From: a virus
Length of the DNA: 64,000 nucleotides
IMG/VR virus record: IMGVR_UViG_3300028534_000016
Coordinates: 28,152-92,151 of that record
Direction: 5' to 3' (one strand)
The position numbers and the translations under genes were made by a program. Below, one piece after another: positions 3,329-38,496 of the stretch (position 1 is its first letter; each line of letters begins with the position of its first letter). The notes below the pieces were generated by a model that worked only from the letters and a program-made list of their open reading frames with translations, had not been told where the DNA came from and did not search any database.

Positions 3329-4447
3329 TTATCCTTTAAAGCAATAACCTAATAATTTATTGTTAAGGTCAATACTTTCACTTACTAGAATAAGTCTACT
3401 ATTGATATTTGTAGCTAATTCAGTAATGTTATTATTAACGATAATAGTATTATTAATAATATAAGCTAATAAGTAAACTAATGATTCTGGTTTAGCATTG
3501 TCAGTACCTTCTTCTAAGTATGTTTCTACTTCTTTTAAAAGTAGTTCTTGGTAATCATCAAGGTATTTACCAAAACTATCTGATTCAAGGACATATTTAT
3601 TCATAAGTGATTCAAATGCCTTTACCGTATCTTTTAAGTTAGTTACTTGTGCTAAGATAATCGAATTAGTTTCTTTAAATGTATTAAAGATATCTTTATT
3701 TTCTATTTCGTTACTAATAGACAATACTGCTTCTTTTAAATTAATATCGTCATTCGGTAATAATGGAGTAACTTCTTCTACATTAAGTAACTTATAAATA
3801 TCTTCTAAGTTCTCTGATTTCTCAATCATTCCTTTAGCAGTAACATAAAGTAAATCATTAGTTAAACGTTTAAAACCATCTTCTACTTTAGTAGTATCTG
3901 TTTTTAGATTTTCTAAAAGGTATCTATAATCAGTTATGAGTTTAGTAGGTGTTTTTTGTACACTAATATCACTAGCAAACAATGATCCTGTGTGGTTCTC
4001 TAATACAGAACTAATAAATTTAATTCTTAATGTGCTAATATCGTTAAACTTAGAGATATTATCTTTAAGTTGGTCAGTGACTTCTACAATTTTAAGATTA
4101 GATTTTAATGTATCGATATAATCTTTAATACCATTAACAATATCTTGTTTTTCATCTGTAATTTCATTAAGTTCATGTTTGTATCTGTTCTTAATGAATT
4201 CTTTAGCGATAACTAAAGCTTTCTCTCTTGTAAGCTCTCCGCTTAAACCTTCTATAATAGAGTTAACTTCTTTAACAGTATCTTCTTCTAATTCTTCAGT
4301 AGATTTAAGATACTCTACATAGTTCTTAAATGCTTTAATAGGGTCTTTTTTAAATTGTACCATTAAGATACTTACTGGCAATAACTCAGTAGCTTCCTCT
4401 ACTAACTCATTTAGTTCTTCACTAACGTCTTTTGTTAATCTTTTCAT
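3329..4447 (-). CDS. hypothetical helical protein, probably virion-associated
   Basis: 372-aa ORF tightly packed in the structural operon. Confidence 0.6.
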   Translation of the reverse strand: MKRLTKDVSEELNELVEEATELLPVSILMVQFKKDPIKAFKNYVEYLKSTEELEEDTVKEVNSIIEGLSGELTREKALVIAKEFIKNRYKHELNEITDEKQDIVNGIKDYIDTLKSNLKIVEVTDQLKDNISKFNDISTLRIKFISSVLENHTGSLFASDISVQKTPTKLITDYRYLLENLKTDTTKVEDGFKRLTNDLLYVTAKGMIEKSENLEDIYKLLNVEEVTPLLPNDDINLKEAVLSISNEIENKDIFNTFKETNSIILAQVTNLKDTVKAFESLMNKYVLESDSFGKYLDDYQELLLKEVETYLEEGTDNAKPESLVYLLAYIINNTIIVNNNITELATNINSRLILVSESIDLNNKLLGYCFKG

Positions 4448-5166
4448 TATTTAAATTCCTTGTTTAATTTGTTTAAGTCTTCTAAGGTAAAATTACTATT
4501 ACCGAAGTTGTTATTACCAAAACCTGGTTTAACTGCAGATTGTCTTTCTATAGTAGACATATCTATATTAGGTAAGTTAGGTTGTTGGTATCCATGTTGA
4601 TTTTGTTGCGACCTAGGAACATATTCTGTTACCTTACGATAACCATCTTCTTGCTCCTTTTCAACCGCTACTAAATCATGTACACCGAATGGATTATTGG
4701 TGATTGTTCCAGGTGTGTGCATTAGCCCAAAGTCGATAGCATAACCATTAGTAGGTTTAATAATGTCTTGTACAATAGTGTTTTTATTATAGCCAAACAT
4801 TTCACTAACAAACTTATCTATTTCATGTAACCGTTTCTCTTCATACGTAGGAGTATTTAAAGAATGTGAAACTTTATTATTTTGTATAGCAATGTACTCT
4901 TCTAATATTTTAAAGATTTCTTTACTGTCATTAGGGTTAACTATATAAATAGGATAACCATTAATATACATATCGATTATCTTATCTAAATTAAACATAG
5001 CAACAGTCATCTCTTTAAATGTTTCTTTATTAGGCTTACCTTCTGTAATATCTACAGGTAACCCATATACCTTCATTTCTTCTTCAGTATACGTAGCTAT
5101 AATAGGTACTCTAACTTTAAATAATCTATTAGGTAACTTAGTTGTTTTTTCAAAATAACTCATCAT
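4447..5166 (-). CDS. virion structural protein, phiKZ gp100-like
   Basis: 239 aa; synteny; IYIVNPNDSKEIFKILEEY pattern. Confidence 0.5.
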   Translation of the reverse strand: MMSYFEKTTKLPNRLFKVRVPIIATYTEEEMKVYGLPVDITEGKPNKETFKEMTVAMFNLDKIIDMYINGYPIYIVNPNDSKEIFKILEEYIAIQNNKVSHSLNTPTYEEKRLHEIDKFVSEMFGYNKNTIVQDIIKPTNGYAIDFGLMHTPGTITNNPFGVHDLVAVEKEQEDGYRKVTEYVPRSQQNQHGYQQPNLPNIDMSTIERQSAVKPGFGNNNFGNSNFTLEDLNKLNKEFK

Positions 5167-6545: not shown

Positions 6546-7847
6546 TTAGTCTCTGTTTTCTTTTAAAATTTTAATTTGTAGTTCTGCTAAATCAACATAT
6601 TTCTTCATTACGTTAATAGCATAAACTACACGTTTAATACCATATAGATCTACTAGTTTAGAATGTAGAGCGTATGAATTACGCAGACATAAAGTAACAT
6701 CTTCACGAATATCTCTATAGATTAAACCATTAATAACTCCAGCATTGTCGTCAATATTAGAATGTGTTTGGTTAAAAATCTTTTTAAGTTTACTTCCATT
6801 ATTAATGATAACATCTAAAACATCAAACATTTTTTGTTTAGAAGGATAAGCCATAAGATTCATTTGTTCTACTGCTACAGGATTAAGATATAGTGTTTTA
6901 TTAATAAACTCTCTTTTGCTTAAGCGGTCTATTACTTCTTTATCTTCTTTAAATTCAAGAACACTAAATGTAGCATTATCTAAACCAGTACTAACAAGAA
7001 TACCATATTCTAATATTTTATCTACGTCATTACTGTCTCCTAAAAATACGTTTCCTTGTAAATTAGGTTTATGTATTCTTTCTTTAGTTAACATGTCTAA
7101 AATATTCTCTGGAAATATTTGTAATCTTGTTTCTATATCATCTAATGTATCAGTAGTTTTTGCGACATATTCGATATCTTCAGTATTTTTAGCAATAGCT
7201 CCTTGTAACGGTGCAATTTGTACTGAGACTAATAAGTCTCTAATTAATTCAGGATTAATTTCTCCATTTAAATGGAACACCGTATTGATTGCCATTGTCA
7301 TGTTACTAATACTAGTGATATCTTCCTCATTTAGTTTATCAAAAGGATACGATACAAACTCTTCACCCTTTAAACTATCTTTGATAGCTTTAGCTCTTTT
7401 AACATTACTATTAAACAACATAACAAGTTTAACATAAAGTTTCTTAATAGATTTAACAATCTTCTCAATTACAGCTTTAAGTGCTTTAAAGATTTTCTCA
7501 ACATAACCTTCTACTTCTTCTTTACTAAGAACAGCATCATCTGGTAACTCGACACCAACAATGGTTAATGCTGTTTTCATTCTATCGCTATCAAGCTTAT
7601 AGAGAGCTTTTTTAACTTCTTCGTCTTCTACACTAAGTGATTCAAGATCAAGAGTTGTAGATAGCTTATTTAACGTTTTAAGACCATCTTCATAGTTTTG
7701 TAAATAAGTTTCTACAGTCTTCTCTTCTTGAGATACCTCTAAAGCGATTAATTTATATTCTGTTTCAGAAAGTAGTTCACCTTCAAATGTTTCTTCTTGA
7801 GATACTTCAGGTTCTACCATATCAAATATTTTAATTGTTTTTTCCAT
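6546..7847 (-). CDS. phiKZ internal head protein family (gp93-like paralog)
   Basis: Acidic N-terminal propeptide with S-x-E sites, followed by the basic amphipathic EGYVEKIFKALKAVIEKIVKSIKKLYVK segment typical of the family. Confidence 0.7.
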   Translation of the reverse strand: MEKTIKIFDMVEPEVSQEETFEGELLSETEYKLIALEVSQEEKTVETYLQNYEDGLKTLNKLSTTLDLESLSVEDEEVKKALYKLDSDRMKTALTIVGVELPDDAVLSKEEVEGYVEKIFKALKAVIEKIVKSIKKLYVKLVMLFNSNVKRAKAIKDSLKGEEFVSYPFDKLNEEDITSISNMTMAINTVFHLNGEINPELIRDLLVSVQIAPLQGAIAKNTEDIEYVAKTTDTLDDIETRLQIFPENILDMLTKERIHKPNLQGNVFLGDSNDVDKILEYGILVSTGLDNATFSVLEFKEDKEVIDRLSKREFINKTLYLNPVAVEQMNLMAYPSKQKMFDVLDVIINNGSKLKKIFNQTHSNIDDNAGVINGLIYRDIREDVTLCLRNSYALHSKLVDLYGIKRVVYAINVMKKYVDLAELQIKILKENRD

Positions 7848-7856
7848 TATATTTCC

Positions 7857-9383
7857 TTATTTTGGTTCTAATACACTTGTTAGTGTAACGTATTCTTGTT
7901 GAGTATAAAACTTAACCCAACTGTTGTCTGTTATTTTTAATAAGACACTTATGTCATTGTTATGTGTTGGTAATATACTACTAGGTATGTTAAAAATACC
8001 TGCGTAATATTCCACTAACGACGGAACTTCACCTATAGGATATTTGCTTTTGACATATTCATTTATCCTATTATAATCACTATACTTAAGTATGTTTAAA
8101 TCTGTTAATGCGTTTATACAAACTCTATAAAGTGATTTATTGTCTAACGGGTACTCTGACCTAAGATTTAAGTTTTCGTCCATTATAATACGGTTATTGT
8201 AATCCTTAACACCATCTTTATATAAATCAAAATAAAAGATACTGTTATACGGAATACCGACATACGGATAATCACTCTCTTTCCAAAAATCTAAAATTTC
8301 TTGTTTAAAAGTAATGTCAGGAATATCCATTATATTAAATAATGCGGTAAGGTCATTATCGTCTACTAATGTTATAATACTCATCAATCTAGCATAGTCA
8401 GGATAAGGTTTAGGTAACTTATATGTATCTTCTTTAGGTATACTTAAATAATAACTATTAGTTAATTTAAATGTATCATCATAGATACTACTATTAAGGT
8501 CCATCAATGCTTGACTTCCAGAAGTAAAGTTTCCTTTGTACTTAAAATCGTTTTTAGGTATAACTTCTCTAAATCTTTTATCTATAAGTTGGTTATAGAT
8601 AACTATAGGGTACTTAGTTAATAACTCTACAGGAGTTTCATATTCAAATACATAACTAAACTCAACAGACCACGCATTTTCTTCATCTATCTTATTTTTC
8701 TTAATATCACCAACATTACCTTCTATCCATCCCATAACACTATCTTGTTGTTCACGTATAGCCAAATCAACTTTATAACTATCACCGTCAACAGGATTAA
8801 CTGTAGTTACTCCTAAATCAAAAGTATTATTAATATAATCAGTAATCTCTACTGGGGTATCTAACTTATTATTTTTCTTAGTATTAATTTCATTTACTAA
8901 ATCAAATATGATAGTAGGTAAAACATAATGATATTCTAGATTGTGTACTATATATTGTCCATCGCTACTAGGTAGTGTTCTTAACTTATTAATAAGAGCA
9001 CTTACTTTGCTACGTGACTTATTGACATATTTAAAATTAATAGTCATTCTTCGTTTCAGATGGATAGGGATAATACTGGCATCTATTTCTTCATCGTTAT
9101 AAATAGCATTGTAGTCAGGTCTTCTTACCTGTAAGCTGATATCATAACCATCACTAGCTTCTTCGTCGTAATCAATTAGTATATGTTCTGTTCTAGGTGA
9201 ACTATAGCTCTCTATTTGACCTAACGGATTCTTGATACGGTCTACTAATTCATTTTCATCCATAGTATAATAGATGTCGTGATTCATACCTAAGAATCTT
9301 ATGATATCTTCTGTTACTTTAATAATAACAGGTCTAGTGATAGTTTCTTCGGCACTGAAGATTCCTATCTTAGTTTTCATCAT
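7857..9383 (-). CDS. virion structural protein, phiKZ gp98-like
   Basis: 508 aa; ETITRPVII N-terminus, YPIVIYNQLI motif; synteny. Confidence 0.6.
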   Translation of the reverse strand: MMKTKIGIFSAEETITRPVIIKVTEDIIRFLGMNHDIYYTMDENELVDRIKNPLGQIESYSSPRTEHILIDYDEEASDGYDISLQVRRPDYNAIYNDEEIDASIIPIHLKRRMTINFKYVNKSRSKVSALINKLRTLPSSDGQYIVHNLEYHYVLPTIIFDLVNEINTKKNNKLDTPVEITDYINNTFDLGVTTVNPVDGDSYKVDLAIREQQDSVMGWIEGNVGDIKKNKIDEENAWSVEFSYVFEYETPVELLTKYPIVIYNQLIDKRFREVIPKNDFKYKGNFTSGSQALMDLNSSIYDDTFKLTNSYYLSIPKEDTYKLPKPYPDYARLMSIITLVDDNDLTALFNIMDIPDITFKQEILDFWKESDYPYVGIPYNSIFYFDLYKDGVKDYNNRIIMDENLNLRSEYPLDNKSLYRVCINALTDLNILKYSDYNRINEYVKSKYPIGEVPSLVEYYAGIFNIPSSILPTHNNDISVLLKITDNSWVKFYTQQEYVTLTSVLEPK

Positions 9384-27650: not shown

Positions 27651-28433
27651 TTATACTGCGTAATATTTTTGAATATTTGCAATAACACCATCTGTTAATG
27701 ATGTAGTATTTTTATCAAGAGCTTTAGTAAGATTTACTTTCTTAATATTCTCTTTACGTTTACTTAGGTCAGCAAGTGTATTGATAACGATTGCTAAGTT
27801 ATGTAGTGTTTGCATATCTTTCTTATTCCAAGTCCAATAAGCATCAAATCTACAAAGTGCAGGTGTGCTAAATGCATCCTGATAATTCATAACAGCTAAG
27901 TTAATAATATCGAATTTAACTTTAAAACTATTGTAGTCTGGATCACTAAGAGCAGACTTAAGAGTCATAAGTAAATCATATTGTTTACTAGCGCCGAACT
28001 TAGGATCAGTAATTCCTGTAGAAGACATAGCTTCTCTGTATCCAATAAGTTTACTAACTAAACTTTTAAATACCGGAACACCCTTTTCAGCGATACGTTG
28101 TAGTTTCTCATCAACAGTTAATGATGGGTCTTTAAGAAGTTGAGCGATATCATCTTTAGTAAGCATAGCAGCCACAGTAGCAGCTTCTTCAGTTACTCCA
28201 GTAATGATTTCTTTATCTTGTTCAGATTTTTCTTCTGACTTATCTTCTTCAGGAGCTTCAGTTATTTCTTGTTCTTCAGAACTAGATTCTTCTACAGCAG
28301 GAATTACTTCCTGTACATCTTCAGTTTCTGTTACTTCAGATTCTTCAAGTACTTCTTGTTCTTCAGTTTCTGCTACTTCAGGAACTTCAACTGTTTCTTG
28401 TTCTTTAGGTTGTCTGTTTTTACGTTTACCCAT
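27651..28433 (-). CDS. conserved hypothetical protein with an acidic disordered N-terminus
   Basis: 260 aa; E-rich first 80 aa, then a folded domain. Confidence 0.65.
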   Translation of the reverse strand: MGKRKNRQPKEQETVEVPEVAETEEQEVLEESEVTETEDVQEVIPAVEESSSEEQEITEAPEEDKSEEKSEQDKEIITGVTEEAATVAAMLTKDDIAQLLKDPSLTVDEKLQRIAEKGVPVFKSLVSKLIGYREAMSSTGITDPKFGASKQYDLLMTLKSALSDPDYNSFKVKFDIINLAVMNYQDAFSTPALCRFDAYWTWNKKDMQTLHNLAIVINTLADLSKRKENIKKVNLTKALDKNTTSLTDGVIANIQKYYAV

Positions 28434-31580: not shown

Positions 31581-32096
31581 ATGAGTAAAGAACAAGTACA
31601 AGAAGAAGCTACATTAGCTGTAGATACCAGAGAAGATCAAGAACAAGAACCATTATACTGGGAAAGTCTTGTAGATTTAAAAAATGATATTGCTGAAACT
31701 ATTATTAGACAACAAGCATTCATTCTTGAAATCAATAAGCAAAATATTGAACGTTTACAAAAAGACCCAGATGCATTAGCTATGTTAGAAGGATTAATGT
31801 TATCACTTAGTGATTTAGCTAAAGAAACTGCCGAAATCTTTAAAGCACATAGTGATGAACAAGGTAATATTGTTACTGGTAAAGTAGAAGGTATTGATGA
31901 ACAGATGAAATACTTAAGTATAGCTAACCAATATATTACTATCCATGAAAATATCATCAGTACTACGAACAATGTATATTTGGATGTGTTTACTAGATTA
32001 AATCTAGACCATAATCTTTTAAACCAAATTAAAGAAACTATAGCTGCTGGTCAAACTGAAGTAAAGGAAGTTGTTGATGGAACAGAATCAAAATAA
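31581..32096 (+). CDS. hypothetical helical protein
   Basis: 171 aa; AAGGA SD. Confidence 0.65.
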   Translation: MSKEQVQEEATLAVDTREDQEQEPLYWESLVDLKNDIAETIIRQQAFILEINKQNIERLQKDPDALAMLEGLMLSLSDLAKETAEIFKAHSDEQGNIVTGKVEGIDEQMKYLSIANQYITIHENIISTTNNVYLDVFTRLNLDHNLLNQIKETIAAGQTEVKEVVDGTESK

Positions 32097-33603
32097 CGAA
32101 GAAACAAAAGTAGAAGAGGTTACTGAAGAAGTAACTGAATCTACCGAGGAAGAAATTAATCAATACGATGAACATAAAACTAATCCTATTGAAGAAGAGA
32201 AAGATATCGATCCTAAAGAGGCTGAAGAATATCTACCTTTCCCTAGTACACTATATAGTAAATTAGTAGATGCTCTTGAAAAGATTAACTCGTTAACTAA
32301 AGAAGAGTTCAATAACAAATACACTGAACGTGATGCACATGTACTTAAACTAAATGTAGATAGTACTGACTATACTAATACTGAAGATATGTTAGCAGAA
32401 CCACTTAATAAAGAAGATGGATTTATTAACAGTGTTAGTTATGGTAGTAAAGAACTAATGATAAGACCATTGCCTGTAAATAGTGCAGGTAAAGCTTTAA
32501 ATGGTGATGCTGCTATAGCTAGAATAGCATCTATACTAGGTGTTGGTGAAGTAACACAAGTACCGTTATGGCATTCAGGATTCTGGGTAACATTAAAACC
32601 AATTAAAGACGTAGAACTTATTAACCTAGATATTATGTTAACTAATAACCAAATTCAATTAGGTAGAGACACTAATACGTTAATTTTCTCTAACTACTCA
32701 GTAGTGTTTAATAGAATCATAACTAACTTTATAGTTAACCATATTCAGAATACTACCTTAGACTTACCTGCAGGTGAAGATATACGTAAATATATAGCTG
32801 TACAAGACCTCTATACGTTAGTTAATGCTTTACTATACTCAATGTACCCTAAAGGACATATCTTAACTAGAACATGCTCTAACACTACTGTAATAGACCC
32901 TGAAACTAAGAAACCTAAATGTGACAAAGTTATATCTGGTAAAATTGATTTTAGAAAACTTTTATGGGTAAATAGAAAAGGTCTTAGTAAAGAACATATG
33001 AAGATTATGTCTTCTCGTAATCCTAACTCAGTAACTATTGATGATGTGTTAGAATACCAAAACACATTGAGTATTAATAAACAACGTACTAAGAAGTTTA
33101 CTACAACTAGCGGTAGTGTTCTTGAGGTAGTATTTAAATCACCTACATTGGCAGAGTATATCGATAATGGTGAAATGTGGGTAAACAATGTTATTAAGAG
33201 TTGTGAATCTATGTTTACAGATACTACTGATGATGAAGAACGCAATATGATTATAGATAACGTAACAGCTACTATGGTTTTAGGTGTTTACAATGTATAC
33301 GTTGATAAGATTGTGTTAGAAGATGGTTCATACATTGATGATATTGATGATGCATTATCTGTCTTAAGTACAGATAATAAACTATTGAAAGAATTCTTAG
33401 AAGAAGTTAAGGATTATATCAATAGTAACAATATTAGTATTATCGGTATTCCTGACTATACTTGTAGTGGGTGTAAAGAGTCACAAATTAAGGAAGATAA
33501 GAAAGGTCCTTTTAAACAAATGATTCCTATTAATGTGCTTGAAAGTTTTTTCTCCCTATGCGTCCTCAGGATAATGAAAGCACAAGAAAACCGCATATCT
33601 TAG
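32077..33603 (+). CDS. tail/baseplate assembly chaperone-like protein (T4 gp26-like or lambda G-like)
   Basis: VPLWHSGFWVTLKP motif; C-terminal CxxC (CSGC); precedes a gp51/T-like ORF. Confidence 0.5.
   Translation: MEQNQNNEETKVEEVTEEVTESTEEEINQYDEHKTNPIEEEKDIDPKEAEEYLPFPSTLYSKLVDALEKINSLTKEEFNNKYTERDAHVLKLNVDSTDYTNTEDMLAEPLNKEDGFINSVSYGSKELMIRPLPVNSAGKALNGDAAIARIASILGVGEVTQVPLWHSGFWVTLKPIKDVELINLDIMLTNNQIQLGRDTNTLIFSNYSVVFNRIITNFIVNHIQNTTLDLPAGEDIRKYIAVQDLYTLVNALLYSMYPKGHILTRTCSNTTVIDPETKKPKCDKVISGKIDFRKLLWVNRKGLSKEHMKIMSSRNPNSVTIDDVLEYQNTLSINKQRTKKFTTTSGSVLEVVFKSPTLAEYIDNGEMWVNNVIKSCESMFTDTTDDEERNMIIDNVTATMVLGVYNVYVDKIVLEDGSYIDDIDDALSVLSTDNKLLKEFLEEVKDYINSNNISIIGIPDYTCSGCKESQIKEDKKGPFKQMIPINVLESFFSLCVLRIMKAQENRIS
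33546..33552 (+). promoter_or_regulatory. candidate -1 ribosomal frameshift heptamer T TTT TTC
   Basis: In frame with the upstream ORF; the -1 frame runs TTT TTT CTC CCT ATG into ORF 33558-34037. Confidence 0.55.
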
Positions 33604-34037
33604 ATATTGAATTTTTACACAGGACAAATGAACTTGATTACATTCTTGCAGTACGTGAGAATGTAACTCAAGTCTTGACTAGTCCAGAAACTAGAGTACT
33701 ATTTGATGTACTCTATGACAGAGAGTTCGGTTTAAGTAATCTTCATGATGAAGCAGACCAAGCTATAGGTCCTGTGTTATATAGAGAACAAGAGTCAGTA
33801 GATGATGTACACTCTTATAAATCCTTAGTAAGAATATATCTAGATAGAGATATAAATAAGTTCTTTGGTTTGAGTTTAGATGAATTTTTAAATTTATCTA
33901 GATATGAAAGAATAATGTTAGTAGAACTAGCAGAGGAACACATGATTAAAATAGACAATCGGTTAAAAGCATTAAAAGAGGGCGCTGATGCTAAAACTGA
34001 TGATTTAAGTAATTTTATGGATGGTTTAGATGGATAA
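33558..34037 (+). CDS. T4 gp51-like / tail chaperone T-like protein
   Basis: FFGLSLDEFLNLSRYERIMLVE resembles the gp51/T-type motif; no SD before its ATG. Confidence 0.5.
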   Translation: MRPQDNESTRKPHILDIEFLHRTNELDYILAVRENVTQVLTSPETRVLFDVLYDREFGLSNLHDEADQAIGPVLYREQESVDDVHSYKSLVRIYLDRDINKFFGLSLDEFLNLSRYERIMLVELAEEHMIKIDNRLKALKEGADAKTDDLSNFMDGLDG

Positions 34038-34737
34038 AGAGTTAAAAGAAACCGCACAGGATATATTTATAGATATTGATTCCTTATTTGATACTAGACT
34101 ACCTGTAGTTTATTTCCTAGATGAAGAAGTAGCTACTAGTATAGTAGAAGACGGTAGTTACTTTACTAGGAAAAGTGATAAGTTTAAATATATAGATAAC
34201 AATATTTTCAAAGCTGTTTATAAAGAAAGAAATAAAACTTTGTTAACATTAGCTACACCTACTAACATAATGGGTATTTTAAAACAATACTATAGTGAGT
34301 TAATGACACAACATAAGTTAGACGGTACTAATAAAAATATAACGATATATTTAAATATATATCCTTATGAACTAAGTTTAGAAGAGACTGATAAATTAGT
34401 GATTGGAATACAAGCTATCACTTCTAAAGAAGTAGTAGTTAAAATAGTCTCTATGGAAAAGAGAGACTTAACTGTTAAATGGGTTAACGACAACTTAGCT
34501 GTAATGGTCATGTATGATGGATTAGAGTGGTTAGAGTATTATACTGCTAACTTTGAATTGATTAACAATCCATTATTAGACGTAGGACTAATAGTTCCTG
34601 CTATAGTAACAAATAACAGTTTTAATCCAGAGAAAATAGATGACTATGAAGCATTTATAGTAGATACAGAAAAAGCTACAGAACCTTTAATTAAATTAAA
34701 GATGTTGTATGCTAAAGATTTTTCGATAGCAAATTAG
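34030..34737 (+). CDS. conserved hypothetical protein (possible HAD-like DxD)
   Basis: IFIDIDSLFDTRL N-terminus, recalled from phiKZ-like phages. Confidence 0.55.
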   Translation: MDKELKETAQDIFIDIDSLFDTRLPVVYFLDEEVATSIVEDGSYFTRKSDKFKYIDNNIFKAVYKERNKTLLTLATPTNIMGILKQYYSELMTQHKLDGTNKNITIYLNIYPYELSLEETDKLVIGIQAITSKEVVVKIVSMEKRDLTVKWVNDNLAVMVMYDGLEWLEYYTANFELINNPLLDVGLIVPAIVTNNSFNPEKIDDYEAFIVDTEKATEPLIKLKMLYAKDFSIAN

Positions 34738-34773: not shown

Positions 34774-37700
34774 TTAATACATATATTGTACTTTAGCACT
34801 TAATCCATCATAATCGTTAGTATTTAAATCAGCGATATTATCAGTAATCGTTACAGGAACAACCGTAGTCGTGCCGTCGTCATTGATTACTAATACCGTA
34901 TTAAAATTTAATACTTCATTATTAGTAGGATAATATGTTAATGTTAGTTTTCCATCACTTATAGCTAGTGTTTCGCTGTATTGTGATTCTACAGGATAAA
35001 CATATTTATAATCACTAAAATTAACATCAGGACGTGAACCATCTACAGTATTCGTCAAATACATATATTTTTCACTACGATGAATTGTTGGGTCATAATC
35101 AGGATTAACGATTTGGAGCCCTACTGGAAACTCAACTTGATATGTGCTAGTTAAATCTCTAGTCAGAACCAGATTATTTTCATTATTAATAAAGCCATTC
35201 TTAGTTTTAGTATATTTATGTTCTATAATATCATTAATATTATATCCTCTATTAGTATAAAATATACCGCCAATATATAATGTTTGCGTATCAAATCCTT
35301 CATCATTGTACTCGAATGTAAATCTAATTCTTTGTATTGTTGGAATACTATCTAAATGTGTTTCTAGACTAACTAGAATCCATTTATCGAAATCTAAAAC
35401 CTTATTAGCGGTAGTAGTACAATAATTAGTATTATGGTCAGCATCAGTAATACTAAAATCTAAACTAATATTACTACTTTCAGGAGATAAATCAATATAT
35501 TCATTATTAGGAATATATATCCATATATGACACATATATTTATCACCAGGTAACTCATCCGCATTAAAATAATTCAATAGATAAAGTTCTTCATCTGTTT
35601 CTTGCTTAGTGTATTTCGCTATATTAGATATAGAATTAATATTTGGAATATTTTCTTTTTCACAATCAGTAATTATTAAATTACCTGTATACACCCTATA
35701 TGCTGATAATCCTGCTCCAAATACCGGATTCGGATTAATATTTATAGTATCATTTACTTCCTTAATAACAGGAACAACATTTCCTTGTTTACGCATAGTG
35801 TTTATTTCTACATTAGTACTATTATCAGTTTTTGTATAAGCATTTATTCCTATGGCACTACTACTTATTGGTAAATCAGCAGTAATTCCGTCTACTTTAT
35901 CCAATATTAAATATGTAATATTTGGTATTACGTTATTAATAGCGTTTATATGTATGTCCGCACATTGAGTATAATAATCAATTAGATAATTATTGTCTAC
36001 TGATGAATCTAACGGAATTAATGTTCCAAATTTAAAAAATCCTTCTGATCCAATACCCTCGGAATAAACTCCATTAAAAGTCAAACCAGTTATTGCATCA
36101 AATGTACTAGGGAACATTGTAACAAATCCTTCTACCAGGAGATTACTGATTACATTACTATCACAACCATATGCACGTATAGGTTGTTTTATATTTTCAA
36201 AATTAATATCTAAATTATTATTATTAAACTCAAACAAATTTGCGCCAATTATAGTGCTAGTAACAAGTATATCTCTGAATGAATTTACCCATCCGGCTAA
36301 TTCCATTCCGGTGTGAAAACCTCTAATTTTAATATCGTGCATATTTCCTCTATTAAAATGATGCCTAGTACCATTGTCGTCATAACTTAATGTTCTAATA
36401 CAACATAAGTTATAAAATAAATTCAAAGTATCATCATTAGCTACATCGTTATATCCTATAATATTCAAATAAGCTATATGTAGGTTTTCACCTTTTATTA
36501 ATAATACTTCTTTATCTGGTCGTTCGTAAGTAAATAAATCAATACCCGTATTATAATGTTTATATGTATATTCAGATATAGTTTCTGTTCCGTTGTTGGT
36601 ATATTTAATTATCGTATTGGTTCTACTAGTTCCAAGTAATGAACATTCAACAACTAATGTATCGTTAATATAAATTGTTTTATCAGGAATAACAACTATT
36701 CTATCTTCTGCTTTACCTTTATCTAAAGCTCTTTGGAACTCAATAGTATTTTTAGTAATGATATCAACATCTGAAGTATATCCGAATACAATATCATAAT
36801 GTTCTAAATTTATCTCATTATATGGAGCAATTCCATTAAATGCTTTTCTTTTACCAACACCAAATACTGCTATACTGCCTACCGCTAATAAGTTACTTAC
36901 AGGAATATCTAAATTAGTTAAATCATCAGCGTCAACACCATTAGCAAAAGTTATTCTTATTTTATTTAAATCATAACCTTGTCCGCCGTTAGCTCGCCAT
37001 AGAAATGTTTGCGATAAATTATCAGTATAATTTTCTAAAGTACCCCAGGTACTGCCATTATCATTACTATATTCTATTTTAATGTCTTTAGCTATTCTTG
37101 ACATTTGAAAAAAACCAATACCTATTGCATGTACTCTTGCTTGTGGTATCGTTAACTCAAACACTATCTCACCGTCACCATTCTCTTCAGGCCACCTAAA
37201 TGTTGCTCTGTGGTTAGTTCCAGTTGGTTGTGTGAACATTTTATATGCAGTACTGCTACTTGGAGTAGAAGTGAATCCACCAAAATCAGTTAAGTTAGCA
37301 ACTAAGTTATCTTGGAACCCTATGCCATTTCTAGTATCGTCACCCCAATGATATAATGCTTTAAAATATTCAGGAGTTTCATATTGATCACCATTATCTT
37401 TAGCTGCTATACTAGCAATCATTATTTGCGACTTATAATATGGTGAATAAAATCCATCACTATATATATTTCCTTTAGTCTGTGAATCATATATCATAAA
37501 TCCATAAGCAGAATTCCAATCCCAAATAACTCCTTCAAATGTATTAGATCCGCCATTACCACTTAATTTAAGTCCTTGTGTTCCTGCAAGAGTATCTGGT
37601 TGTATGTGTAAATCAAAAATATTTTTACTTATTTCACCAGTACCTAAATTTTCTAATGTAACACTTTCGAAAGCTTTATTTATCATTCCTTTAAATTTAT

Positions 37701-38496
37701 TACTAGTTACATATGCGCCATTATCTACATTAATAGAAATAGCCCTTTTACAGTCATGGATATGTATATTTTTAATATTCCACCACGACATACCATCATC
37801 AGTATTAACTAAATCAATATCAAAAGCAGTGATGTCATTACCATATCTTCCGATAAGAGATAGTGAATCAATCCAAACATAATGTGGGTTCTTCCAATAT
37901 ACTTCTTTAATAATATCATAATCTTCTGAAATGCCTGTATCTACAGCAAATAATCTTCCGTTAAAAAGAGATTTTTTTGCAGCGGATAAATGTAATCTAT
38001 CGATAGTTATGGTATTACCAACTATTCTAACCACATCACCACTATCACTATATGGAACAAATACGCCATCCATATCCATATTTAGTCCGCTTTTTAATAG
38101 TAAATTACTTACAGCATAGTCACCTTTAGGTATGAAAATTGTATTAGTTTTATAAAATCTATCACCTATACTTTTAAATTCTTCATAAGTCGCGTCTATT
38201 ACTTTTTGAATAGCCTCGGTATCATTGGTAACACCGTCGCCTTTAGCTCCGAACCATCTTACGTCTATTGGTCCGTCATATATTGCTCTCCAACCACCAT
38301 TTTCAACATATAGTACAGTTCCTCCATTATCATCTTCAGGAGTTATATCGTCATCCCATACATATGTTAAATCTATGTCATCTTGAACTACTGCTATGTT
38401 AGCACGTCCAATGTAATGTAGTAACCTCTCTCTATCTATAGCGTGCTGAAGAGTTCTACTCTTCTCATTAACTTTAGTTATTTTCTTTTTAAGCAT
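34774..38496 (-). CDS. tailspike/depolymerase with two pectate-lyase-like beta-helix modules
   Basis: DDNGGTV...GGW anchor, DVRWFGAKGDGVTNDTEAIQKVID; second start YDIVFGY...NTIEFQRALD..IVVIPDKTIYIND; discoidin-like KIEYSNDNGSTW between them. Confidence 0.75.
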   Translation of the reverse strand: MLKKKITKVNEKSRTLQHAIDRERLLHYIGRANIAVVQDDIDLTYVWDDDITPEDDNGGTVLYVENGGWRAIYDGPIDVRWFGAKGDGVTNDTEAIQKVIDATYEEFKSIGDRFYKTNTIFIPKGDYAVSNLLLKSGLNMDMDGVFVPYSDSGDVVRIVGNTITIDRLHLSAAKKSLFNGRLFAVDTGISEDYDIIKEVYWKNPHYVWIDSLSLIGRYGNDITAFDIDLVNTDDGMSWWNIKNIHIHDCKRAISINVDNGAYVTSNKFKGMINKAFESVTLENLGTGEISKNIFDLHIQPDTLAGTQGLKLSGNGGSNTFEGVIWDWNSAYGFMIYDSQTKGNIYSDGFYSPYYKSQIMIASIAAKDNGDQYETPEYFKALYHWGDDTRNGIGFQDNLVANLTDFGGFTSTPSSSTAYKMFTQPTGTNHRATFRWPEENGDGEIVFELTIPQARVHAIGIGFFQMSRIAKDIKIEYSNDNGSTWGTLENYTDNLSQTFLWRANGGQGYDLNKIRITFANGVDADDLTNLDIPVSNLLAVGSIAVFGVGKRKAFNGIAPYNEINLEHYDIVFGYTSDVDIITKNTIEFQRALDKGKAEDRIVVIPDKTIYINDTLVVECSLLGTSRTNTIIKYTNNGTETISEYTYKHYNTGIDLFTYERPDKEVLLIKGENLHIAYLNIIGYNDVANDDTLNLFYNLCCIRTLSYDDNGTRHHFNRGNMHDIKIRGFHTGMELAGWVNSFRDILVTSTIIGANLFEFNNNNLDINFENIKQPIRAYGCDSNVISNLLVEGFVTMFPSTFDAITGLTFNGVYSEGIGSEGFFKFGTLIPLDSSVDNNYLIDYYTQCADIHINAINNVIPNITYLILDKVDGITADLPISSSAIGINAYTKTDNSTNVEINTMRKQGNVVPVIKEVNDTININPNPVFGAGLSAYRVYTGNLIITDCEKENIPNINSISNIAKYTKQETDEELYLLNYFNADELPGDKYMCHIWIYIPNNEYIDLSPESSNISLDFSITDADHNTNYCTTTANKVLDFDKWILVSLETHLDSIPTIQRIRFTFEYNDEGFDTQTLYIGGIFYTNRGYNINDIIEHKYTKTKNGFINNENNLVLTRDLTSTYQVEFPVGLQIVNPDYDPTIHRSEKYMYLTNTVDGSRPDVNFSDYKYVYPVESQYSETLAISDGKLTLTYYPTNNEVLNFNTVLVINDDGTTTVVPVTITDNIADLNTNDYDGLSAKVQYMY

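Follow-up and report, generated by a model that had tools for sequence, protein, structure and literature searches.

In the tail assembly chaperone genes of phages lambda (gpG/gpGT), P2 (E/E+E', where the slip site is T TTT TTG) and Mu, a conserved -1 ribosomal frameshift is used, and in the capsid protein gene of T7, gene 10, a -1 frameshift at G GUU UUC yields a second form with a short extension (10A/10B). Here we analysed a locus of comparable layout in a 64,000-nucleotide stretch of viral DNA (the window; positions 28,152 to 92,151 of IMG/VR virus record IMGVR_UViG_3300028534_000016) from an uncultured, AT-rich, phiKZ-like phage represented by DNA only, in epibiont and hydrothermal vent metagenomes. 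The locus consists of a gene of the phiKZ gp77 family and an open reading frame (ORF) that overlaps its end in the -1 frame. Programmed -1 ribosomal frameshifting is the best explanation of this arrangement, with a probability of roughly three in four; that the slip takes place on the ribosome is what we infer from sequence comparison.

The zero-frame gene, which would encode the short product, lies at 32077..33603 on the plus strand, where the ORF gives 510 amino acids (aa) from an upstream TTG and 508 aa from an ATG with an AAGGA Shine-Dalgarno (SD) site. The 508-aa protein showed a full-length profile match to phrog_4585 (residues 6-502, E 1.9e-83). Near its end the gene reads ...GAA AGT TTT TTC TCC..., which places the slippery heptamer T TTT TTC (33546-33552, plus strand) in frame at Ser490-Phe491-Phe492. 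A TGA in the -1 frame at 33540-33542, just 5' of the heptamer, means that the -1 frame opens only at 33543, from where it continues as AAG TTT TTT CTC CCT ATG... to 34037, with its stop at 34035-34037. The part that would be read after a slip, 33552..34037, comprises 161 codons and the stop, while the gene-caller version of the same frame is a 159-aa ORF of the phrog_12109 family (33558..34037, plus strand; E 3e-10) starting at ATG 33558. Both frames are thus coding over 46 nucleotides (nt), 33558..33603, up to the zero-frame stop TAG at 33601-33603. No SD-like 4-mer was found at -18 to -5 of ATG 33558, whereas such a 4-mer is present upstream of 33 of the 47 long ORFs in the window, against 7% of random positions. 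The predicted fusion is 492 + 161 = 653 aa long, and its junction would read ...LESFF-LPMRPQD... (peptide ...NVLESFFLPMR). The sequence therefore bears out what a first-pass annotation of this DNA had noticed, namely the in-frame heptamer, the TGA that closes the -1 frame, the 46-nt overlap with an SD-less downstream ORF, and the expectation of a short product and a fusion of about 650 aa with this junction.

The heptamer by itself is weak evidence, because such heptamers are frequent in a genome of 30% GC: the plus strand of the window holds 65 runs of six or more T, and within ORFs of 100 aa or longer T TTT TTN occurs in frame 12 times. The gp77 heptamer is the only one of these to open a long -1 frame, with 163 codons in comparison to 6 to 23 for the other in-frame heptamers of the window, and the comparative data given below show that it is evidently not a product of chance.

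In the proposed mechanism, most ribosomes would pass T TTT TTC without a shift and terminate at TAG 33601-33603, giving the 508-aa protein, while a fraction would slip back by one base as the two tRNA-Phe on UUU UUC re-pair with UUU UUU (tandem slippage). The slipped ribosomes would continue with CUC CCU AUG... to 34037 and produce the 653-aa protein, a form of gp77 which would lack the last 16 residues of the C-terminal helix and carry a 161-residue helical extension instead. In this account, the arrangement is ancestral to the whole gp77 family of the phiKZ-like and AR9-like jumbo phages.

Read in this manner, the locus works like lambda G/GT, P2 E/E+E' and T7 10A/10B, but lies outside those families, as homology, size and genomic context all differ. 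As in lambda and P2, a gene related to morphogenesis ends soon after a heptamer, a minority slip would exchange its C-terminus for the product of a startless overlapping ORF, the arrangement persists despite divergent sequences, and no stimulatory structure is needed; the P2 heptamer T TTT TTG itself occurs at the gp77 locus of pEa_SNUABM_54. Unlike in lambda and P2, there is no sequence homology, the upstream protein has 500-720 aa in comparison to approximately 100-140 aa, and the locus has RNA polymerase and tailspike genes next to it instead of lying between the tail tube and tape-measure genes. What the locus has in common with T7 gene 10 is a late gene with a U-run close to its end, where the slip falls on Phe codons, and a minor, C-terminally extended form beside a major one, the difference being that the gp77 extension is a conserved 160-residue domain which is annotated as a separate gene.

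To determine how widely the arrangement is conserved, we compared 30 loci, taken from the window, from 10 metagenomic relatives and from 19 named phages with hosts in Pseudomonas, Erwinia, Ralstonia, Burkholderia, Vibrio, Klebsiella, Serratia and Bacillus. A first set of 26 loci was analysed by script, and four further relatives of the gp77-like protein were added afterwards. A megablast search of phages with the locus, a tblastn search of phages with the 159-aa ORF, and scans of IMG/VR for relatives gave no match, while tblastn with the 508-aa protein found 182 phage records, including PHIKZ077, all below 31% identity. A protein search with the 159-aa ORF returned eight relatives of 47% to 86% identity, and the contigs of six of these (the close relatives below) were analysed.

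The results showed that in the first set of 26 loci and in the four added later the long frame downstream is without exception the -1 frame, and that a run of five to eight T stands at the homologous [ST/V]-F-F/L position in 30/30 loci, 33 to 120 nt before the zero-frame stop (26 loci). A perfect T TTT TTN heptamer was present in 26 of the 30 loci (22 of 26 in the first set), with C, T, G and A all occurring at the last base, and the distance from the T-run to the -1 stop was 153 to 176 codons in every locus. The comparison of homologous gene pairs across the Chimalliviridae that had been proposed with the first-pass annotation thus returned a T-run and a -1 ORF of constant length throughout. 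The outcome named there as speaking against frameshifting, homologues that lack the heptamer and have an SD site and ATG of their own, was not seen, most loci having no start codon nearby.

The T-run is kept even where codon usage runs strongly the other way. The GC-rich phages seldom use TTT for Phe elsewhere in the gene (0/18 in RSL2, and a fraction of approximately 0.11 in PhiPA3, 0.13 in RP12, 0.17 in Haymo and 0.18 in FLC9), and despite this bias the slip site is TTT TTT. Just one other T6 run was found in 21 gp77 genes, in Wellington. The chance of TTT at the Phe codon of the site in all 22 lineages is about 10^-11.7, or about 10^-18 if the preceding T is included, a product which treats the lineages as independent; they are not fully so, but synonymous sites are saturated at 25% protein identity. 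These codon statistics show that the T-run is maintained by what must be selection at the nucleotide level.

Several observations weigh against ribosomal frameshifting or also fit something else. We found no stimulatory RNA structure: folding of the 95 nt that follow the site is no more stable than that of shuffled sequences (z of the minimum free energy = +1.7), and an alignment of seven sequences gave four predicted pairs with no covariation. Stimulators of this kind, or SD-like elements 5' of the site, often accompany -1 frameshifts, although they are not obligatory. The heptamer is imperfect in 4 of the 30 loci (G TTT TTT in FLC9 and PhiPA3, G TTT TTC in Noxifer and A CTT TTT in pVp-JHP1101), where A-site tRNA re-pairing is still possible in all four. 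A U-run is also what transcriptional slippage requires, and the window itself has an ATG two codons after the slip site, so that separate initiation is possible for this phage alone. As no stimulatory element was found, the slip efficiency may be low; by analogy with lambda G/GT it is probably a few percent.

The main rival is slippage of transcription, in which the phage RNA polymerase would stutter on the T-run and leave one extra U in some mRNAs, which would then encode the same 653-aa fusion. The conserved element is, after all, a homopolymer of five to eight T, the four loci without X XXY YYZ still keep the run, and these phages use unusual multisubunit RNA polymerases of their own. The runs are short, T6 in the window and T5 in two phages, whereas the known transcriptional slippage sites of bacteria and phages usually have 8-9 residues or more. 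Moreover, 26 of the 30 runs stand in the exact phase for tandem tRNA slippage and no T6 run was found in phase 1, even though this phase argument is weak because FF codons also constrain the phase. Run length (T5-T6 in many lineages) and run phase together argue mildly against transcriptional slippage, and we consider it an unlikely, if serious, alternative to slippage on the ribosome.

A second alternative is that there are two separate genes, in which the 159-aa ORF starts at its own ATG 33558, through coupling to gp77 or through a U-rich leader that binds S1, and the T-run is kept for that leader or for the Phe-Phe pair. U-rich leaders can boost initiation without an SD site, and in the window and the six relatives nearest to it the T-run is followed after 6 nt by an ATG, or in one case by a GTG. 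In these seven sequences (47% to 100% identity, window included) TTTTTTC and the 46-nt overlap are invariant, while the Ser codon before TTTTTTC switches between AGT and TCT; the 86%-identical relative has GTG where the other five keep the ATG. An SD site for the downstream ORF was found in 0 of the 7. The overlap has the same length in 8 of the 10 metagenomic relatives. In four further relatives (34% to 45% identity), T TTT TTA or T TTT TTC stands in the right phase and the -1 frame runs for 154 to 172 codons from the T-run, whereas the position of the window's ATG reads TTG, AAG, AGG or GAG. The peptide across that position is nevertheless conserved (FFRPMRP.., FFRPKRSQ.., FFRPRRPE.. and FFRPLHSQ.., or FFRP[MKRL]R...), and because the codon varies while the peptide across it is conserved, ATG 33558 is not a conserved start.

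The same holds at larger distances. Depending on the locus, the -1 frame offers its first potential start codon at any position between codons 4 and 105, 3' of conserved protein sequence, and in most named phages there is none for 100-268 nt even though the conserved protein sequence begins at the run; in phiKZ, pEa54, AgentSmith, FLC9 and MadMel, for example, an H-x4-FG motif precedes the first start. A search of phiKZ, pEa_SNUABM_54 and AgentSmith with phrog_12109 revealed an uninterrupted frame of 164-171 codons which starts inside the end of the gp77 gene. In phiKZ, gp77 ends ...LSTFFTLAASKSNRMV, the in-frame codons at the run being ACT TTT TTT; the -1 frame stays open from a point just 5' of the run until the annotated gp76.4 ends, with no ATG, GTG or TTG for 261 nt after ACT TTT TTT, and the phrog_12109 match begins about 60 codons upstream of the gp76.4 ATG; the predicted junction there is ...DMLSTFFYFGGLEVK. 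The second ORF has no conserved start while the anatomy of the locus is conserved, and, judged by this pattern, the -1 frame serves as coding sequence from the T-run on. A need for Phe-Phe alone, in addition, leaves TTT TTT in GC-rich genomes unexplained. Two independently initiated genes are, on these grounds, quite improbable.

That a homopolymer error has split one 653-aa gene, or that the overlap is a coincidence beside an unused heptamer, is hardly credible: T6 runs and in-frame heptamers are admittedly plentiful in the window, but thirty independently sequenced genomes have the T5-T8 run and the same -1 relation, the zero-frame stop keeps its position within a clade, the zero-frame tails are conserved as protein (ESFF[SD]LCVLRI... 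in the close relatives), and no in-frame fused homologue was found among the best 150 extension matches and the best 120 gp77-family matches. A contig which spans the T-run of the window without an indel is probably the source contig itself and not independent evidence.

The search for fused homologues used a profile of the extension family against 1.84 billion representative proteins and returned 199 members, the lengths being taken from the best 150. These proteins have 67-210 aa, many of them starting at query positions 30-66, the kind of ragged N-termini expected of gene callers where a real start codon is missing. None of the best 150 is an in-frame fusion of about 650 aa; one 1411-aa match with 11 matched stretches was discounted as a spurious repeat match. 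The best 120 proteins of the gp77 family have 309-616 aa. The short form and the two-frame arrangement thus both appear to be maintained, so far as these length distributions tell.

The current annotations do not reflect programmed frameshifting at this locus. None of the 19 named-phage records inspected contains a joined coding sequence or a frameshift annotation, and the annotated starts of the downstream gene vary widely, from a 136-nt overlap to a gap of approximately 220 nt. In phiKZ, the 80-aa gp76.4 corresponds to no more than the C-terminal part of an open frame of 171 codons whose beginning lies within gp77 (NC_004629.1, approximately 71442-71957, minus strand; 4098-4613 of the stretch used), and the 'intergenic gap' of approximately 220 nt after gp77 is coding in the -1 frame. 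Similar under-annotation was observed in pEa_SNUABM_54, AgentSmith, Eowyn, sm033, Haymo, EarlPhillipIV and others. Full-text literature searches found no description of a frameshift in the gp77 gene, the mentions of 'gp77' that they returned referring to other proteins, and neither gp77 nor gp76.4 is listed in the Grad-seq supplements. PhiKZ and its relatives are the model nucleus-forming phages and candidates for phage therapy, and gp77 is a core gene of this much-studied family. If the frameshift is real, a conserved protein of approximately 650-690 aa is missing from every annotation examined, small downstream genes such as phiKZ gp76.4 are fragments of it, and knock-outs, transposon-essentiality maps and proteomic searches of the locus need to be re-read. 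It would also mean that the conserved frameshift of tail assembly genes extends to another group of phages, and to another protein family, in neither of which it is known to have been described.

To look into the possible function of the two forms, we modelled their parts with AlphaFold2 (AF2). The model of the gp77-like protein, built with 71 homologues, has a mean predicted local distance difference test score (pLDDT) of 85 and a predicted template modelling score (pTM) of 0.85. Its C-terminal helix (487-507) contains the slip site near its start, and the long form would therefore lose most of this helix and gain the extension. Four Cys (267, 282, 463 and 466) are invariant, which suggests a zinc site. 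The model of the extension (159-aa ORF; pLDDT 83) is all-helical with a 43-residue C-terminal helix at 115-157, and had no informative structural match, only generic long helices and coiled coils.

No solved relative of the gp77-like protein was found: a sequence-profile search of PDB was empty, Foldseek against PDB gave nothing below E 0.07, and in a wide VIA-align search the helical hairpin 354-431 was the only match. Among predicted models, the BFVD matches that follow the gp77 homologues are T4-like models of a baseplate hub subunit, assembly protein or chaperone (probability 0.9-1.0, E 2e-3 to 4e-2, template modelling score by target 0.4-0.54). Predicted models also account for an AFDB match to a 'Baseplate protein' with probability 0.94 and for an ESM Atlas cluster with a score of 0.91 in which 24% of the members carry PF12322. 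In addition, one record labels the AgentSmith homologue a baseplate hub assembly protein. The hub assembly chaperones of T4 are gp26 and gp51 (PMC3004832, Table 2). Both match PF12322 over their full length, with 216 and 178 bits (T4 genes 26, 26' and 51; 7803-9229 of the T4 stretch used), and they are therefore paralogues.

The direct tests of membership gave a different result. The PF12322 hidden Markov model had no match in the window protein, the 71 family members or the window's genome, and none at the gp77 locus in five phage genomes, with one match in RSL2 elsewhere; hhalign of the gp77 family against PF12322 gave a probability of 22% to 34% over 15-29 residues. For tail assembly chaperones (TACs) there was no Pfam match, and the fold matches are weak (Foldseek to the HK97 TAC, probability 0.30, BFVD TACs 0.4-0.57, Atlas clusters GpE and TAC_19 0.80-0.81). 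The predicted fold of the gp77 core appears to resemble that of T4 gp26/gp51, and a C-terminal CxxC element is present in both; unlike gp26/gp51, gp77 is more than twice as long and lacks a PF12322 match. The assignment of gp77 as a gp26/gp51-like assembly chaperone is thus moderately supported by the models, as a lead and not as family membership, because the direct profile tests are negative or weak. Of the 'tail-chaperone-like genes' of the first-pass annotation, a fold-level likeness to the T4 hub assembly chaperones is suggested by the predicted models, homology to lambda G/T or P2 E/E' does not hold, and the tail-chaperone analogy for the pair is plausible but unproven.

T4 also makes two forms from gene 26, by internal initiation (26'); no frameshift is annotated for T4 genes 26 and 51, and the internal gene 26' is listed instead. 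From these likenesses we infer that the short and long gp77 forms would cooperate as chaperones of the T4 gp26/gp51 type when the baseplate hub or the tail is assembled. It is possible, although we would put it forward only tentatively, that they are the missing tail or hub assembly chaperone pair of the phiKZ-like phages, in which the G/GT logic of a core chaperone accompanied by a substoichiometric, frameshifted tether would have arisen or been retained on a gp26/gp51-type scaffold, and the slip ratio would be essential for the giant contractile tail.

The neighbours of the gp77 pair are a virion RNA polymerase beta-like subunit, a 171-aa ORF, a 235-aa phrog_3328 protein and, on the opposite strand, a large tailspike, in agreement with the earlier remark that no tape-measure gene is adjacent. 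The 171-aa ORF (31581..32096) lies upstream and shares 20 nt with the start of the gp77-like gene (window 32071-32096), and in most relatives the gene upstream of gp77 (gp78 in phiKZ and 201phi2-1) likewise tightly overlaps or abuts it. The next gene downstream, phrog_3328 (34030-34737), shares 8 nt with the 159-aa ORF and lacks an SD-like motif, a sign that translation of the two may be coupled. Its product is labelled a virion structural protein in one Erwinia phage, and the gene follows the gp77 pair only in the AT-rich clade, the named phages having a homologue elsewhere in the genome. The tailspike-like protein of 1240 aa (34774-38496, minus strand) has an N-terminal pectate-lyase-type match to PF12708 and matches phrog_4250, EPS depolymerase. 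The 86%-identical relative has two gene calls here, of 796 aa and at least 443 aa, suggesting that the gene is variable or split between close strains.

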